A DNA stretch of 64,000 nt, taken from Gammaproteobacteria bacterium. GTDB taxonomy: Bacteria > Pseudomonadota > Gammaproteobacteria > CAJXQU01. The notes below the pieces were generated by a model. The model saw only the letters and a program-made list of their open reading frames with translations, was not told the DNA's origin and did no database searches. Positions 2,528 through 52,565 of the stretch are shown here, piece by piece. How positions within the stretch are numbered: the stretch's first letter is position 1; each line of letters begins with the position of its first letter. Location: positions 2,816,001 through 2,880,000 of the forward strand of contig CBDEGZ010000003.1 of assembly GCA_965238175.1 (NCBI GenBank). The letters are read 5' to 3'. The position numbers and the translations under genes were made by a program.

Positions 2528-2881
2528 TGTGCTGTGTTGGGTAATGGTAGTGAATATTCTCCGAAGTCATTAGAAACTACCGAGGTAGGCGGCTTCGAAT
2601 TGAGATCCTTCGCAAAAACAGGATAACAAAGTAAAAAGGGCATTTTAACAACCTCAAAGTTAATAGGGTCCTATAACCCTCCTGACCTTGTGAAAGCTCA
2701 TTTCAAATTCTCAACTCCAAAATTCGGTCTTACACAACCTGGCCTAGTTCCGACAGGTCATGCGATATAATCCCGACAGATAGAAATTGATCCAAACCAG
2801 CCATAAAACCATAACTATCGCCTCAGGCGACATAATTTGCCCAAAAATCCATATTCCCAGATCTTGTTTATGGATAATGTG

Positions 2882-2983
2882 TCACCAGGTAATGTCTCAG
2901 CAATACCTGTTCCTGTTGCAATGTGGTTGTTTGATCCTGCATTGATGGGACTTGTGGGCTTCAAACACAAAAAAACGGCCTGA
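2882..2983 (+). pseudogene. orphan VPLPA/PEP-CTERM-type sorting-signal remnant
   Basis: Translates SPGNVSAIPVPVAMWLFDPALMGLVGFKHKKTA*; no intact ORF upstream. Confidence 0.65.
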
Positions 2984-3039
2984 TATTAAAACTGCTAAAT
3001 CCTGATCAATAAGGGGATAAATACTTTTACTGACCATAC

Positions 3040-3490
3040 TCTATGAAATACTGCGGTCGGTGCTGGTAATTTTGTCACCAAAGAATTTAATGTCGCAAGA
3101 AACACACGATTATCCCATGGTTCAACTGATGTTGGCGCTTTTAATGTCCGGTATACCACTCGTAGTAGCGTGAATGAGAACTTGAATACTATAATTAATT
3201 CCACGAGTTCTCGATCTGCTGGTCTAATCAATATTGATCACCTGCGGTTGAGATGGGAGAGTCAAGACTCTGATAGTATGACCTCCTTGATAGAAATTAT
3301 CTTTGAAGCCCTGTTAATACCTTTGCCGCAAATTTTGTCGGAGTGAGAGGGCCCAGTGGTTTAGTCTTGAATCTGGATGGTACATCGGTAAATCCTTTTA
3401 ATATTACAGGGACACGGGGCTTCTCGGTTGGGCCTTTGATAATGCCGTATCCTCGATCAGTTTTTCAGCCACCGGATCGGATATATACTG
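3040..3490 (+). pseudogene. frameshifted remnant of a secreted PEP-CTERM-like protein body
   Basis: Fragments NTAVGAGNFVTKEFN..., PVNTFAANFVG..., GWAFDNAVSSISFSATGSDI lie in shifting + frames. Confidence 0.4.
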
Positions 3491-3502
3491 TTCATAAAGA
3501 AT

Positions 3503-3529
3503 AAAGGGGGTATAAGCTACCCTCTTTTT
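3503..3529 (-). terminator. intrinsic, probably bidirectional, terminator after nuoN
   Basis: AAAGGGGGTA-taagc-TACCCTCTTT hairpin with A/T tracts on both sides, just past the nuoN stop. Confidence 0.65.
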
Positions 3530-3540
3530 ATTTGGAGCTA

Positions 3541-4977
3541 TCAGTTAAAAACAGCTAAACAAACCGTCAATAAAATCCCCGGCATCAAACCTAGCATCAA
3601 CACAACTAATCCGTTTAGACCTAAAAATAATTTATGATCTGTCGGAGCGATAATTTCAATCTCTTCGGCAGAATCAAAGTACATCAACCTTACAATTCGC
3701 AAATAGAAAAACACACCTATAATCGCAAAAAAGACTGCCGCTACAGCTAACCAGAGATGCCCTACTGCAACAATTTCTTTTAACACAAACCATTTGCTCC
3801 AGAACCCGCCAAATGGCGGAACTCCAGCCATAGAAAACATTAATATCAGCATAATCAAAGCCAACCAAGGACAGCGTTTACCAAGCCCTTTTATATCCTG
3901 TAGTTGATCAGCTTCTTGCCCTGACTGGCTGATTAGGGTAATTACACCAAACGCACCAGCAGTCATAATTGTGTAAACGAGCGTATAAAATAGTGAAGCT
4001 GCAAAACCACTTTGCGTTCCTGCGAGTAGGCCCAGCATCATATAACCCATATGCGCGATCGCGGAATAGGCCAGCATGCGTTTTATGTTTGTTTGTGCAA
4101 CCGCAACGACATTGCCAAGACCAATCGACAGTATCGATAGAATGATCAACATTTGTTGCCAGTCCGCACCAAGCCCCATCAAGGCATCTACCAGCAAACG
4201 ATAAGCTAATATAAACCCAGCCAGTTTAGGAACTGTACCGATAAACATTGTCACTGCGGTTGGTGCGCCTTGATAAACATCGGGTGCCCACATATGAAAC
4301 GGTGCAACCCCAAGCTTGAAGGCAATGCCTGCAACAATAAAAACAAGACCAAAAATTAATAATATTTTGTCATCTTGATAGTTTGCAATCGCATTATTGA
4401 TCACAGAATGATCGAGGCTTCCCGTGGCTCCGTAAATCATCGACATACCGTACAACAACATGCCAGATGCAATTGCACCGAGGACGAAGAATTTCATCGC
4501 CGCCTCTGAGGCTTGTTTGGAATCACGATACATCGCAACCATTGCGTACATCGACAAAGACAATAATTCCAATCCAAGATACATAGGCAGAAAGTTGGCT
4601 GCCGAAGCCATGATCATCATGCCTAATACAGCGAATAATATCAGGACAAAATATTCACCCTTAAACAGATTTCTATCGACGAGATATTGTCGAGAGTAGA
4701 TCAAAACCACAAAACTGATCATATAAATAAATATTTTCAAAATCGTGCTCAACGGATCACTAATAAATAGTCCATTAAAAGCAATTTGTGCTGTCTCAGA
4801 TGAAAACTGTACGCTTAAAAATACGGCAATGGCAAGTGTAAGCAGCGATAAAGAATAAGCTAACTTTTGATGTGTTTTACCAAAGAAAACATCAGCCATC
4901 AGAACAGTGCATGCCATACTGAGCACGAATATTTCAGGAATGGCCAAGCTATAATTCAGCGCGTTAAGGGCGTTCAA
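3541..4977 (-). CDS. nuoN: NADH-quinone oxidoreductase subunit N
   Basis: GLELLSL, EAAMKFF, FKLGVAPFHMWAPDVYQGAP, NIKRMLAYS; last gene of the operon. Confidence 0.97.
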   Translation of the reverse strand: MNALNALNYSLAIPEIFVLSMACTVLMADVFFGKTHQKLAYSLSLLTLAIAVFLSVQFSSETAQIAFNGLFISDPLSTILKIFIYMISFVVLIYSRQYLVDRNLFKGEYFVLILFAVLGMMIMASAANFLPMYLGLELLSLSMYAMVAMYRDSKQASEAAMKFFVLGAIASGMLLYGMSMIYGATGSLDHSVINNAIANYQDDKILLIFGLVFIVAGIAFKLGVAPFHMWAPDVYQGAPTAVTMFIGTVPKLAGFILAYRLLVDALMGLGADWQQMLIILSILSIGLGNVVAVAQTNIKRMLAYSAIAHMGYMMLGLLAGTQSGFAASLFYTLVYTIMTAGAFGVITLISQSGQEADQLQDIKGLGKRCPWLALIMLILMFSMAGVPPFGGFWSKWFVLKEIVAVGHLWLAVAAVFFAIIGVFFYLRIVRLMYFDSAEEIEIIAPTDHKLFLGLNGLVVLMLGLMPGILLTVCLAVFN

Positions 4978-46680: not shown

Positions 46681-47800
46681 CACTGCTGTCCCGTTAACTT
46701 TCAAACCAATACCAATTGCTGAACTGTATTTATCTCATCGGGTAACGGGTCGTCTTGCAACAACGCTAACAACGACCGTTTATCAAAGAGATTACGTTGC
46801 AATACACGTAAGATTTGTTGCATGCTCTTCTTGAGTCTGGACTGAAATTTGATGAATACCATCAGTAAGTAAATGCACATTGCTATCCATACCTGTGTCA
46901 TCACCGCATTCTTACTTGTGCCGATGAATGATTTGATTTTAAGGTTTTGTTTTATCCATTTAAAAAATAATTACACTTGCCAACGTGCTTTATAAATATC
47001 AGCAATCGTTTTCGCTGCAAGTGTAAAATTATTGGTGAGAAACACATCGTGTTTCCCTGTTTTCGGGTCACGATAACCAATACGACGTAACTGAGCAGGG
47101 CATTTTTTTGCGGTTTGGAACCCGGTGAATTCAATGGTTTGGTCACACGTCAGTCCTTTGCTTTTCAAAACATCGCTCCGACCTATCACACGATATTTAG
47201 CATGCGTTTTGAGGCGCGTTACAAAGAATATCCCCTTGTCTGTCAATTGCTTATACCAGGCATCGTCATTGTACGCTCTATCAATAGCGACAATACTTCC
47301 CTTGGGAAAAGACAGTGTGCGACCCACCGTCACGTCATGTGTTTTCCCTTCCGTTACCGGGACAAACTCGGGTAAATAACCTGAATGGTTCAATTCAACA
47401 TGCAGCTTTATCGCGCCTTTCGTTGTACGAAAGTCAGCCCACGGGAAAACGGATAAACACAGGTCAATCGTAGAGGCATCCAATGAATACAATGTGTTTT
47501 TAAAACGGAAAGATTGTCCTGGCGTTAACCCCTGACAACGTGCTAACAATTTACCAAACAAGGCCTCATAAAGTGTGTAAGGTTTATCTTCATTGATACG
47601 GGACAAATTGGAGCGAGATAATTTTACACTACCCAAATGATACAGACGATGCGCTTGAGCTGACAGGTTCTCGACAATATCTCGCAAGCTGTTTCGAACC
47701 GACAATTGTGCCATTGCCAGTGTCACAAACTGAGACCAACGTGAAGCTGTTCGAAACGAACGACCACGGTGATGCTGATTTGCCAAGGGCTCAAACTCAT
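46681..47800 (-). mobile_element. IS4-family element, 5'-truncated with an internal stop
   Basis: SLRD, LDASTIDLC, AIKLH, YKARWQV*LFFKWIKQNL; right end ACGGGACAGCAGTG at 46681. Confidence 0.88.
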
Positions 47801-48389: not shown

Positions 48390-48720
48390 TAAAAGAAACT
48401 ATTAACATAGAAGAAAGGAAATTTATTTGGATGGCTTATCTGAACTTTATCTTGATACTGAACTTCAGGAATCATACTTTAAGCATTTTGCTTTTAAAAT
48501 AATTGGAAGCTCTTACATTTTAACTGAAGTGAAAGAAATTAATAGGCATAAAGTCTTTGCTATTCTCCAAGCAAATTTAATGAGCGTAGCAGGTGAATAG
48601 ACAGGAGTTGATGAAAAATGGCTGGTTAAAAATATAATCGACTCATTTGAAAAACGAAATATCTTATTTGATGTATAAGTCGATATTTGAGGATTATTTG
48701 GAGGAAAGGTCAGGAAAGGC
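48390..48720 (+). pseudogene. degraded conserved hypothetical gene
   Basis: LSELYLDTEL...NLMSVAGE*TGVDEKWL with a frameshift and a stop. Confidence 0.45.
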
Positions 48721-48929
48721 ACCACAGGCTATTATACTTATACCTTACCCTCCTTCCATAATTAATAGATTCCATATCTAAAATTTTGATAATTTAATTT
48801 TTAGAGACTATTCAAGATAACGCAACTTAAAGTATTATCTAAAGATGAGAAGAGTCGATTAATTGAGTTATTTATTGCAGACTTAACCGCTCGAATAGCT
48901 GCCTCATTAGTCGATGTGAATGTATTAGA

Positions 48930-49109
48930 TAGCGAATTCAAGACAATAAGTTAGATGAAAACACGGTGACTGTTTTGTCCAGTGGACTTCTTTTAGTCGC
49001 TATCAAAGCGGAGTTGCGTAGCAATAGCGGGCTATTGAAAACGACTCAACGCACAGAGGCGCTAAAAGAAGTCTGCTGGATGGGTATTTCTTATCCCGAG
49101 TTCAGGTTA
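48930..49109. mobile_element. hairpin MITE with IS982-like terminal repeat
   Basis: Internal IR CCAGTGGACTTCTTTTAG / CTAAAAGAAGTCTGCTGG; right end TTATCCCGAGTTCAGGTTA; left end degenerate. Confidence 0.6.
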
Positions 49110-49131
49110 TTTAGTTAACAGAGTATTCTAG

Positions 49132-49749
49132 ATGTATGGCAGCTTAAAAGCTAATCATGGGGTCAAACCATTGGGAAACAAAAATACAGACGCTGTCATT
49201 TTTCTGCTTATGCAAGAGGCTGATGCGGCATTTTTCATACAAAAGTTACAAGAACATGCACCGTTTACGGCTTTAGAACATATAGTGTCCATTCAAGCTC
49301 TTGAACAACGCATCGAACACTATACCAATACAACGACATGCCCAGCACGTATTATCTCATTCTGTTCACCCCTCATTGTACCGCAAACCATTTTAGAGCG
49401 ACTACAGTTTAATGCCTATAATTTCCATCCCGGCCCGCCAGAGCGCCCTGGCTTTCACCCAACAGAATTTGCTATTCATGAAAAAGCTGAAAAATTCGGT
49501 ATCACTTTTCATCAGATGTATGCAAAGGTCGACTCAGGGCCAATCATTGATGTGCTACGTTTTCCTATCACGCCAGAAATGAACGTTGAGACACTTGAGG
49601 CTGAATGCTATAAAGCTCTTTTAAGTATTATAGTAAATCGAGCTGCTGAACTTGCCAACGTCAGCTTTCATTTTGAACCAATGCGTGAAGATTGGTCGGG
49701 CATAAAAACAACCCGCAAAGATCTCGAACGAATATATAAATATGGGTAG
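49132..49749 (+). CDS. formyltransferase-family protein
   Basis: AYNFHPGP, GITFHQM..KVDSGPII. Confidence 0.8.
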   Translation: MYGSLKANHGVKPLGNKNTDAVIFLLMQEADAAFFIQKLQEHAPFTALEHIVSIQALEQRIEHYTNTTTCPARIISFCSPLIVPQTILERLQFNAYNFHPGPPERPGFHPTEFAIHEKAEKFGITFHQMYAKVDSGPIIDVLRFPITPEMNVETLEAECYKALLSIIVNRAAELANVSFHFEPMREDWSGIKTTRKDLERIYKYG

Positions 49750-49989
49750 AGCTTATGATTAGAAAATAAATAGTCAGAGCCTGAGGGATCCCATGAAATT
49801 GGTATAAATAATCAAGCATACAACGGCTCTCTCATGGGTTGTTATATGTGCTCAGAGGCTCTTGTCCAATCTTTCTCTTTGAGTTTTAACGTTCTATCTT
49901 TGAAACGCTCTCAATTTTCACCGAGGAAATATTTCCTAATTTATAATGTCGTCTTTTTTGATTGTAAAACGGGCTCTATGTAATTAACC

Positions 49990-51334
49990 TGATGTGATGG
50001 TCTCCTCCCCCTAACGGCATCTAGGTGCCATGATTGAACTGACATACACACAATCAAAAGAGGAGAAGACCAAAATGAAGACTACAACAATCGGGTTAGA
50101 CATAGCAAAAAACGTATTTCATGCTGTCTGCTGTAATCAACAAGGGCGTATAATCAAAAAGAAAATGTTAAAGCGAGCGCAGGTACTCTCCTTTTTTCAA
50201 TCTCAACCTCCTTGTTTAGTCGCAATAGAATCTTGTGCAACGTCACAGTATTGGGCCCGAGCGATACAACAACAGGGACATCAGGTGAAATTACTACCAC
50301 CTCAGCATGTTAACGCATTTCTAATCGGCAATAAGAATGATTATAACGATGCCTTGGCCATCGCCGTTGCTGCGAAACAACCTCATTTAAAAAGTGTGGG
50401 CATTAAATCAGTTGAGCAACAAGACAACCAGGCACAACATAAAGCAAGAGACTTAGCGGTCAGACAAAGAACCGCATTATGTAACCAAATGAGAGCGCTT
50501 GTTGCAGAATATGGCATTAGCCTTCGTCCCGGCCTAAATACCCTACGTCAATCTATCCCGTTGCTATTAAGTGATGAGAACGAACGGTTGTCCGTTACTT
50601 TCAAAAGGATACTGCGCCAGCTAAAGGAACAATGGCAATCACTTGATGCCTGTATTGCGACATTTGACCAATTGATCATTCAATCGGCAAAAAACAATGC
50701 GATTTGCCAACGCTTACAAACTATTCCAGGGTTTGGGCCGATGGTCTCGAGCGCGTATTTTAATGAAGTGGGAAACGGCGCTCATTATCACAAAGGGCGC
50801 GATGTGTCCGCCTCATTAGGACTTGTTCCACGACAGTACAGTAGTGGTGGTAAAGAGGTGCTACTGGGGATCAGTAAACGCGGCAATAAATACCTTCGTT
50901 GTTTGTTAATTCTAGGCGCGAAGGCCGTGGTATCAAGAGCCAAAACGAAAGGCGATAAACTGAGTCAATGGATTAATCGTTTAGTTGAGACGCGGGGGCA
51001 TAATCGAGCGTGTGTGGCGTATGCCAACAAAATGGCAAGAATGGCCTGGGCTATAACGGTTTCTGGTGATGACTACTCACCGGCCTAAATAGAGAGAACA
51101 AATCATTTCAACGAATTGCGAAGGTAAAACTAAAGATGGCATAACAGGTCAAACCAGCCTATTGAAAACCTGTCGAGCTCAGGGGTAACTAATACCGATA
51201 ACCTGATAAGGAAAATAGGCGCGTAATACATCCAGGTCAGAAGTTGAAAACTTCATTGAAGGCCGTATATATGACAGCAATCCTGTCCCTGTTATCTGAA
51301 TGTTTTATCTTGCAATACGGGAGGAGACCATATA
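49990..51334 (+). mobile_element. IS110-family, IS1111-type element (transposase 50075-51088)
   Basis: IGLDIAK..F, KNDYNDA, LGLVPRQYSSGG, RGNKYLR; sub-terminal IRs ATGGTCTCCTCCC (49997-50009) / GGGAGGAGACCAT (51319-51331); long 3' non-coding region. Confidence 0.93.
51120..51300 (+). ncRNA. putative bridge/seek RNA of the IS1111-type element
   Basis: Stem GCCTATT/AATAGGC encloses CGAGCTCAGG and TAACCTGA (target matches); a second loop holds ACATC and ATATATGA (donor-junction matches); boundaries approximate. Confidence 0.7.
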
Positions 51335-51339
51335 TGAAC

Positions 51340-52565
51340 TGTAGAAGTTTAGACCCAATCTGACACATCACTAAATCAAGCGGAGCGTAGCGACGCTTGA
51401 TTTAGTGAGAGTTACCCGCTTTGATGTAACTGCAACGTAAACATCAAAACACAAAGAGGTAACTCTCATGATTCATACTAATGACAAAGTTATAAAACAT
51501 AAAGTTGGTCTACTCAATCTCGCTGAAGAACTCGGCAATGTCTCAAAAGCCTGCAAGATGATGGGTTTGTCCAGAGATACATTTTATCGCTACAAAGAAG
51601 CGGCTGATGAAGGCGGTGTAGAAGCCTTGTTTGATCGTAATCGGCGTACCCCAAATCTTAAAAACAGAATCGACCCGGCTATTGAAACCGTTGTGCTCGA
51701 GTATGCACTGGAAGAGCCCGCACATGGTCAAACGCGCACCAGTAACGAGCTGCGCAAACGGGGAACATTTGTCTCACCCAGTGGCGTTCGTTGTATCTGG
51801 CTTCGTCATGGTCTTGCTTGCTTTAAAGATCGCCTGAAGGCATTGTCTGATAAGGTAGCTGGTGAAGGCTTGATCCTCACTGAGTCTCAAGTCGCGGCGA
51901 TGGAACGCAAAAAAGACGACGATGAGGCTTGTGGCGAGATAGAAACGGCACACCCTGGTTATCTTGGCTCGCAAGATACTTACTATGTCGGTACTTTCAA
52001 AGGCATTGGTCGGGTTTATCAACAAACGTTTGTTGATACTTACAGCAAGGTCGCTCACGCGAAACTGTACCCGACTAAAACACCGATTACGGCAGCTGAC
52101 ATGCTCAATGACCGCGTCCTCCCATTCTACGAAGAACAACGTTTGCCTATGTTGCGCATTTTGACAGATAGAGGGACGGAGTATTGTGGGCGAGCTGACC
52201 AGCATGATTATCAGCTTTATATGGCGTTGAACAATATCGAACACACCAAAACCAAGGTCAAATCACCTCAGACGAATGGTATTTGTGAGCGATTCCATAA
52301 GACGATCCTCAATGAGTTTTATCAAGTCGCTTTGCGTAAGAAAATTTACCAATCGATTGATGAACTGCAACTCGACCTTGACGAATGGTTGCTCAAATAC
52401 AATACTCAACGAACTCACCAAGGCAAAATGTGCTGCGGGAGGACGCCGATGGAAACACTCATCGACGGACAAGCTATCTGGAAGGAAAAGTTTTTGAACT
52501 AAACTTAACCTGACAGTCAGTTACAGAAAAAGGGGTAACTGTCAGATCAAGTCTGAATTTCTACA
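51340..52565 (+). mobile_element. IS481-family element, copy 2 (transposase 51468-52502)
   Basis: 1226 bp; flanks TATGAAC / CATAAGT are not duplicated. Confidence 0.95.

Follow-up and report, generated by a model that had tools for sequence, protein, structure and literature searches.

We analyzed a stretch of 64,000 nucleotides (the window; positions 2,816,001-2,880,000 of the plus strand of contig CBDEGZ010000003.1, assembly GCA_965238175.1) from a Gammaproteobacteria bacterium, which carries an intact insertion sequence (IS) of the IS1111 family at 49990-51334 on the plus strand. Very probably, this element moves by RNA-guided recombination, with a guide RNA aimed at the ends of IS982-type elements. 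A preliminary description of this DNA had proposed a natural RNA-guided recombinase that parasitizes IS982-like ends and those of MITEs (transposable elements of the miniature inverted-repeat type), and the proposal is supported here by the consensus of the target sites in the genome and by guides that covary with the flanks of the elements that carry them. The argument is carried by the anatomy of the element, the genome-wide target consensus, the covarying pairs of the RNA structure and guides that vary together with flanks, core and left end. Coordinates are window positions, while those prefixed by C3 are contig positions outside the window numbering; the genome to which the window belongs (G000) is a 3.35-Mb assembly in three contigs.

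The IS1111 element and its insertion sites

The element measures 1345 bp and begins with a 7-bp terminal extension, TGATGTG (49990-49996), the first two bases of which, TG, are the left copy of the core. The adjacent subterminal inverted repeat, ATGGTCTCCTCCC (49997-50009), which is conserved in most homologues, forms a perfect pair (13/13 bp) with the right subterminal repeat, GGGAGGAGACCAT (51319-51331), and a 3-bp extension, ATA (51332-51334), completes the right end. The only long open reading frame (ORF) encodes a DEDD transposase/recombinase of 337 amino acids (50075-51088, plus strand), which matches PF01548 (E = 3.6e-16) and PF02371 (E = 6.4e-20), scores 302.9 bits on NF033542, the NCBIfam model “IS110 family RNA-guided transposase” (cut-off 140 bits), and contains the C-terminal motif GLVPRQYSSG, which fits the pattern GL-P----S(T)G. 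Its likely start is the ATG at 50075, after a GAGGAG ribosome-binding site; homologues align from residue 1-2 of this form, and the in-frame ATG at 50030 would give 352 amino acids. A non-coding region of 246 bp (51089-51334) follows downstream.

In Siddiquee et al. (PMC11187229), IS1111 elements are distinguished from IS110 elements by subterminal repeats of 11-13 bp, extensions of 7 bp on the left and 3 bp on the right, a long downstream non-coding region and transposases of 330-350 amino acids, and the motif GL-P----SG is given as a further mark of IS1111 transposases. The window element has each of these features in addition to the domains, and the IS1111-type assignment and the boundaries given in the preliminary description agree with the domains, repeats, extensions and junctions found here. 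When the transposase was compared by sequence to entries in the PDB, only its C-terminal domain aligned to IS621 and ISCro4 (phmmer against IS621: residues 213-333, E = 2e-4).

Copies in the genome were identified by BLAST searches with the element, after which both ends were matched exactly to locate the junctions. In total, 24 full copies and one copy cut by the start of a contig were found, all of them reported by BLAST as 100% identical. In DNA contigs from one sample, the depth of a unitig covering 49985-51337 exceeded that of the unique flank by a factor of about 19-37, which confirms the repeat boundaries and the excess of copies. The left junctions end in TAACC in 25 of 26 cases and in AAACC in one, all 24 right flanks start with TGA, and the 24 complete copies are inserted in the same orientation relative to TAACC|TGA without duplication of the target. 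At the window copy, the left target half, TAACC (49985-49989), consists of TA, from the host or a target-site duplication, followed by ACC, the first three nucleotides of an IS982-type repeat, and the right half, TGAAC (51335-51339), consists of the core TG followed by AAC, a remnant of the same type of repeat. Removal of the element rebuilds an IS982-type repeat, and the joined flanks TAACC|TGAAC are, as stated previously, identical in 10 of 10 positions to the reverse complement of 49100-49109 (TAACCTGAAC), which lies within an empty copy of the repeat at 49090-49112.

As many as 21 of the 24 right flanks lie within IS982-type terminal repeats or their remnants. These include MITE repeats like TGAAYTCRGGATAA (15/24), the repeat of a full IS982-family element, TGAGATCGGTTTAAGCC (2/24), TGAAC followed directly by the left end of an IS481-family element (3/24, the window copy among them) and a 29-bp palindrome of two such repeats (1/24). 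The remaining right flanks are a look-alike site within an IS481 right end (1/24) and unrelated sequence (2/24). The motif AACCTGA is intact in all 21 occupied IS982-type ends and altered in 10 of the 18 unoccupied ends (Fisher p = 7e-5), mostly to AATC and in one case with a TAA core. Among the ends in which AACCTGA is preserved, those of both IS982 copies and most of those of MITEs are occupied.

The main MITE is about 210 bp long, contains no ORF and is present in about 10 copies or fragments that are 84-98% identical. Its repeat is identical in 15 of 19 positions to each terminal repeat of the resident IS982-family element, the ORF of which adjoins C3:118143 and scores 279.6 bits on NF033520 (cut-off 130 bits), which bears out the earlier label “IS982-like”. 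Both IS982 copies in the genome carry the IS1111 element at the same position, always in the repeat that contains CCTGA, while the opposite repeat reads AACCCCAAC. In ISfinder, IS982 ends are reportedly given as “AC”. The MITE is flanked by 6-bp duplications (TACTTA, TAACTA, TATTTA), which places the start of its repeat at ACC. In the sister species G002, the orthologue of one occupied locus has a single TATTTA and neither MITE nor IS, as compared to TATTTA on both sides of the MITE in G000; this marks the MITE as an insertion that duplicated 6 bp and has a repeat starting with ACC. The order of events read from these sequences is that the MITE inserted first and the IS1111 element thereafter, three bases inside the MITE repeat.

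In the window, a truncated IS982-type MITE (48940-49109, minus strand; 91.8% identity to MITE positions 3-173) has at its intact end an unoccupied target (49090-49112, minus strand) with 0 mismatches to AACCTGAACTCGGGATAAG; this is the empty target that the preliminary description had recognized. Classification of the MITE as IS630-like (TA target) was ruled out by the 6-bp duplications and by the resemblance of its repeat to the resident IS982. A preference for one MITE end (nine insertions at end B, one at end A) was not upheld: AATC replaces AACC in several A ends and three of the B insertions may represent one event, which leaves too few cases. A nine-copy repeat with TTGCCGCTGAACTTGGTATACGGCGTAATCAGC, located at about 33925 in the window (C3:2849925) and at eight other sites, also resembles the MITE repeat.

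Several other remains of IS1111 elements were seen in the genome. The main contig begins within a copy (C3:1-1321), 24 nt short of that copy's end, which indicates that the assembly breaks at this repeat. At C3:1393274-1393339, a perfect 66-bp palindrome consists of two IS1111 left ends of about 33 nt each, arranged head to head, with TAACC beside each of them; it probably arose from two inverted copies by deletion. Two broken and diverged relics of other IS1111-family elements were located at C3:2357911-2358383 and C3:2897431-2898116, one with 79% DNA identity over the first 390 bp and the other with 35% protein identity and stop codons.

The guide RNA and its target and donor matches

Homologues were collected from 80 loci with relatives that are 49-78% identical at the protein level and, additionally, from a class sample of 41 genomes, in which the best protein relative was only 53% identical. 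A related element in the sister species G003 was overlooked in the class sample because the contigs of that genome end inside the element. No near-identical copy was found in a plasmid collection, where the best matches are confined to the RNA region, 14% of the query, and reach 70.7% identity, one of them located 3' of an IS110-family transposase gene on a Klebsiella plasmid. The ends of the homologues were placed with the help of the conserved subterminal repeats, 52 distinct 3' regions were aligned, and 49 sequences were included in a consensus fold.

The consensus fold defines a conserved, structured non-coding RNA (a long seekRNA or bridge RNA) with two internal loops at 51135-51298 on the plus strand. 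It contains 31 pairs, of which 22 show compensatory changes. Pairing is retained in 96.6% of the cells, as compared to 32-40% when the partners are slid by 1-3 columns, and none of 500 shuffles reached the observed value. An outer stem (51144-48 with 51282-86) surrounds two stem-loop modules, each with an internal loop. The first module is built from the stem GCCTATT/AATAGGC (51157-63 with 51214-20), an inner stem (51169-71 with 51209-11) and the hairpin GGTA/TACC (51184-87 with 51193-96). The second is closed by a short GC/GC stem (51221-22 with 51277-78) and contains a further stem (51235-38 with 51261-64) and a hairpin (51240-44 with 51250-54). Both the GCCTATT/AATAGGC stem and the GGTA/TACC hairpin had been pointed out in the preliminary description, and they recur in single-sequence folds as well as in the consensus. 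A search of Rfam at a permissive E-value over 48500-52000 returned no family for the RNA and two chance-level matches on the opposite strand.

The loop of the first module contains two segments that match the target. Guide T (51172-51183) is complementary to the top strand CC-TG-AGCTCG, and guide B, ATAACCTG (51198-51205), is identical to the top strand and complementary to the bottom strand. The segment complementary to the top strand thus lies 5' of the segment complementary to the bottom strand, which is also the order given for IS1111 seekRNAs in PMC11187229. The second loop contains donor guide D1, TACATCCA (51227-51234), of which ACATC is complementary to GATGT in the top strand of the left end, and donor guide D2 (51265-51276), in which ATATATGA equals the right end, the core and the first left-end base of the circle junction. 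Segments overlapping all four guides had been proposed from the window sequence, and each was recovered: CGAGCTCAGG at 51174-51183, which matches CGAGTTCAGG (49097-49106) in 9 of 10 positions, TAACCTGA at 51199-51206, which matches the target top strand, and ACATC at 51228-51232 and ATATATGA at 51267-51274 in the second loop, with which the donor covariation agrees.

We compared 49 distinct guide pairs to the flanks of their own element and to the flanks of the other elements, with 10,000 permutations. Guide T matches the reverse complement of its own flank in 8.57 of 11 positions, as compared to 4.72 for other flanks, and guide B matches its own left flank and core in 6.35 of 8 positions, as compared to 3.44. 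The sum of the two own-flank matches was not reached in any of the 10,000 permutations. The donor guides covary in a similar manner with the ends of the element. In D2, the variable base of ATATA[T/C]G tracks the core of the right junction, being T in 17 of 18 TG elements and C in 30 of 30 CG elements, and in 50 of 51 homologues the second base of D1 (xxCATC) changes with left-end position 4. Since D2 tracks the core in this way, the shared core is a dinucleotide, YG, across homologues (TG here), with the A of “TGA” common only by coincidence. In 13 of the 52 homologues (e.g., L107, L089, L113, L086, L116, L120, L130, L124, L138), the TG of the left junction stands against CG in the left target guide, in the donor guide and at the right junction, which could reflect a 6-bp left extension or an unresolved heteroduplex of the core.

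Natural changes of target among the relatives follow the same pattern. A related element in G003, with an RNA region that is 85% identical, is located in the repeat of the same MITE family, and the complementarity between its guide CCGAATTCAG and its own flank, TGAATTCGG, is perfect. Four close relatives retain ATAACCTG and occupy TAACC-TG-A sites. One copy (L062), in a metagenome-assembled genome (MAG) of Colwellia, abuts TGAGATCGGTTTAAGC, which is identical in 16 of 16 nt to the IS982 repeat of the window genome and matched perfectly by the guide of that copy; on a second contig of the same MAG, the same right end adjoins a complete IS982 transposase gene. Other relatives (L061, L064-L066) have other targets and correspondingly altered guides, and many of the more distant homologues are located in palindromes that resemble repetitive extragenic palindromic (REP) sequences. 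The sub-lineage with the ATAACCTG guide was found in the genus of the window element, Colwellia, Shewanella and Paraglaciecola, at 68-78% protein identity. Two positions of the right guide vary within it: the window genome has GC, the sister species AT, Colwellia TC and Shewanella GT.

The guides of the window element predict the 15-mer ATAACC-TG-AGCTCGA as target. The 24 occupied sites score 8-13 out of 15 against this sequence, and the roughly 455,000 TG-centered sites in the genome mostly score 3-7. Next to the core, TAACC-TGA is strict, and the distal right half is tolerant.

The region where the ends would meet in a circle contains a putative promoter. Its -35 box, TTGCAA (51310-51315, plus strand), would be completed when the ends abut, by a 17-nt spacer and the -10 box TA|TGAT. 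Among the 52 homologues, TTGCAA is present in 42 and the 17-nt spacer in 47, and the -10 box reads TATGAT in 33 and TACGAT in 18 (51/52 together). Junction promoters are described for both the IS110 and the IS1111 families in PMC11187229.

By analogy with characterized members of the family, these observations suggest the following mode of movement. The 3' non-coding region would be transcribed together with the recombinase gene, most likely from the promoter formed only where the ends abut in an excised circle, and the transcript would fold into the two-loop RNA of about 165 nt and be bound by the recombinase. In the first loop, the guide at 51172-83 would pair with the top strand of CC-TG-A(G/A)CTCG and the guide at 51198-205 with the bottom strand of ATAACC-TG, while the two guides in the second loop would recognize the circle junction CCATATA-TG-ATGTG. 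The DEDD recombinase would then exchange strands at the shared TG core, in the manner typical of the family. The predicted outcome is insertion in one orientation and without duplication, at a point three bases into the terminal repeat that IS982-type elements and MITEs carry, by which the tip of the repeat would be cut off.

Alternative explanations and later rearrangements

Several observations weigh against RNA-guided targeting of IS982-type ends. Guide T has a C-A mismatch to the commonest target, the MITE repeat TGAACTCGG, and the only perfect match to the guides in the genome, at C3:393938 (AACCTGAGCTCGG), is unoccupied. Likewise empty are eight IS982-type ends in which AACCTGA is intact, one of them in the window, and 56 TG-centered sites that score at least 12 out of 15 against the guide-predicted site. 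Conversely, two to four insertions have a poor right half, such as TGACAGTCG (8/15) and TGATTTTCG (9/15), and the specificity may therefore rest mainly on TAACC-TGA. The covariation of D1 derives from few independent lineages: besides the ATGTG clade, there are two elements with ATGTA and single elements with ATGGG and ATGGA. A scan of the integrated copy for sigma-70-like promoters gave no site on the plus strand. In three sets of DNA contigs from one sample, no joints, circle junction or empty-site form were found, and these contigs are uninformative either way.

The empty targets would fit an element that was once RNA-guided and is now a recently silenced fossil, in which the match between guide and target is only historical. 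This explanation is unlikely, since all copies are reported as 100% identical, with open frames of 357 amino acids that are intact, and all parts needed for movement are preserved; the identity and the intact frames indicate a very recent burst.

The strict sharing of only TAACC-TGA by the occupied sites, the tolerance of several mismatches in the right half and the empty perfect match at C3:393938 could also mean that the protein itself recognizes the IS982-type repeat or the structure of the DNA, with the complementarity of the 3' region being incidental. This is very improbable in light of the 49 elements with unrelated targets, in which both guides change with the flanks (0/10,000 permutations), and of the close relatives L061 and L064-L066, which belong to the same protein family and have other targets and altered guides. 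Furthermore, the experiments on the family that are reported in PMC11187229 show that the RNA is essential and can be reprogrammed.

Least probable of all is that the conserved flanks stem from duplication of an IS and MITE composite or from homologous recombination instead of repeated insertion: three copies do share an identical right side (MITE fragment and IS481), three further copies share the sequence right end-TGAAC-IS481, and the genome is rearranged at IS copies, with 19 of 61 IS481 copies lacking a duplication, but all 26 left flanks differ beyond TAACC, the occupied MITE copies are 84-98% identical rather than identical, at least four different types of target element are occupied, empty MITE ends are present, and relatives in other genera are inserted at the same position of similar repeats.

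The IS481-family element next to the window copy (51340-52565, plus strand; 1226 bp; NF033577, 279.1 bits) is a later insertion at the junction of the IS1111 right end and the target. We identified 61 IS481 left ends in the genome, of which 39 are associated with a 7-bp duplication centered on TNA; other copies in the window are located at about 36264 (minus strand), 55574 (plus strand) and 60157 (plus strand). To the right of the window IS481 (52566 onward), TATGAAC is not repeated. The other half of the event is found at C3:3332137, where TATGAAC, the duplication made by this insertion, and then the MITE sequence TCGGGATAAG come after an IS481 right end. As TATGAAC consists of TGAAC preceded by the two terminal bases of the IS1111 right end, IS481 entered a pre-existing IS1111/MITE junction, and the MITE body was parted from the window junction by a later rearrangement. 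This accounts for the remark in the preliminary description that the guide matches bases no longer present at the insertion site.

The junction right end-TGAAC-IS481 occurs at three loci (C3:945276, C3:1054153 and 49990 in the window) with three different left flanks, and may reflect either an IS481 hot spot at TATGAAC or homologous recombination. At C3:1050196-1054153, two inverted IS1111 copies surround a 37-bp MITE fragment and an IS481 copy. The window also contains a 271-amino-acid ORF (46971-47786, minus strand) with DDE_Tnp_1 and DUF4372 domains, which represents another transposase, apparently truncated at the C-terminus.

It is conceivable, if rather doubtful, that this IS1111 sub-lineage is a specialized hyperparasite of IS982-family transposons that tracks variants of their repeats by means of the right guide. 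The guide of the window genome would then be a compromise, one mismatch away from the MITE repeat and one from the repeat of the autonomous IS982. If so, the severing of the repeat tip would immobilize the IS982 and MITE targets, and the AATC and TAA variants that survive would have escaped by mutation. The relative L061 in a Halioglobus MAG (2755-3991) has the target CCAGATC-TG-AGGTTAAAA, with the 3' end of an IS66-family transposase gene at a distance of about 190 bp, and this may be another landing beside a mobile element.

Comparison with known systems

The insertion of one mobile element into the terminal repeat of another has precedents. The IS1111-family elements IS4321 and IS5075 reportedly land at a fixed position and in a fixed orientation within terminal inverted repeats that belong to other transposons, as Partridge and Hall are said to have described in 2003; the repeats in that case are, by the same account, those of Tn21-family transposons, as compared to the repeats of chromosomal IS982-type IS elements and MITEs for the window element. 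In Coxiella burnetii, 20 of 21 IS1111 copies are located within QMITE2 according to PMC5896051, so that a MITE family serves as landing pad in both systems. There, the target is a GTAG REP palindrome inside the MITE, whereas the window element targets the tip of the repeat, which is shared with the autonomous IS982. We found no published description of IS1111 elements in IS982 repeats, although about 300 ISfinder target logos in the supplements of PMC11187229, which may list the target or the IS, remained unchecked.

RNA-guided target choice by IS1111 elements has already been published, in 2024 (Siddiquee et al., PMC11187229, also the source for the comparison that follows). The window element shares with ISEc11, ISPa11, ISKpn4 and ISPst6 a DEDD transposase of about 340 amino acids, subterminal repeats of 11-13 bp, 7/3 extensions, a downstream RNA region, the order of the guides and oriented insertion without duplication. 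Natural reprogramming among relatives is likewise common to the seekRNA elements of that study and to the relatives of the window element. The targets differ: those elements insert at a short linear site, at REP sequences or at attC sites, as compared to the tip of an IS982-type repeat here. The comparison is between an element known from its sequence and elements known from their published descriptions.

The resemblance extends to the bridge RNA of IS621 and the IS110 group (Durrant et al. 2024, PMC11208160; structures 8wt6 and related), with which the window RNA shares the two-loop architecture, separate guides for target and donor and a 2-nt core. It differs from that of IS621 in that the RNA is located 3' and not 5', the core is YG and the subterminal repeats are long. 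According to the same source, 93% of IS1111 elements have a predicted bridge RNA in their right end, and our data support the presence of a donor loop besides the target loop in the long RNA of these elements.

The current understanding of the mechanism is unchanged by this element. What it adds is a natural test set in a single genome, with 24 occupied sites, eight intact empty sites and 10 variant empty sites, and about 50 homologues with covarying guides, cores and ends, which can be used to define the guide positions that matter. It also presents one lineage of mobile elements that, in several genera, lives on another lineage's termini, and is thereby relevant to the question of how insertion sequences find safe landing sites. 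Since RNA guidance, the targeting of transposon repeats and the insertion of IS1111 into MITEs have all been published, the element joins a known kind: it is a clear natural example of the RNA-guided IS1111 elements and not a new kind of system.

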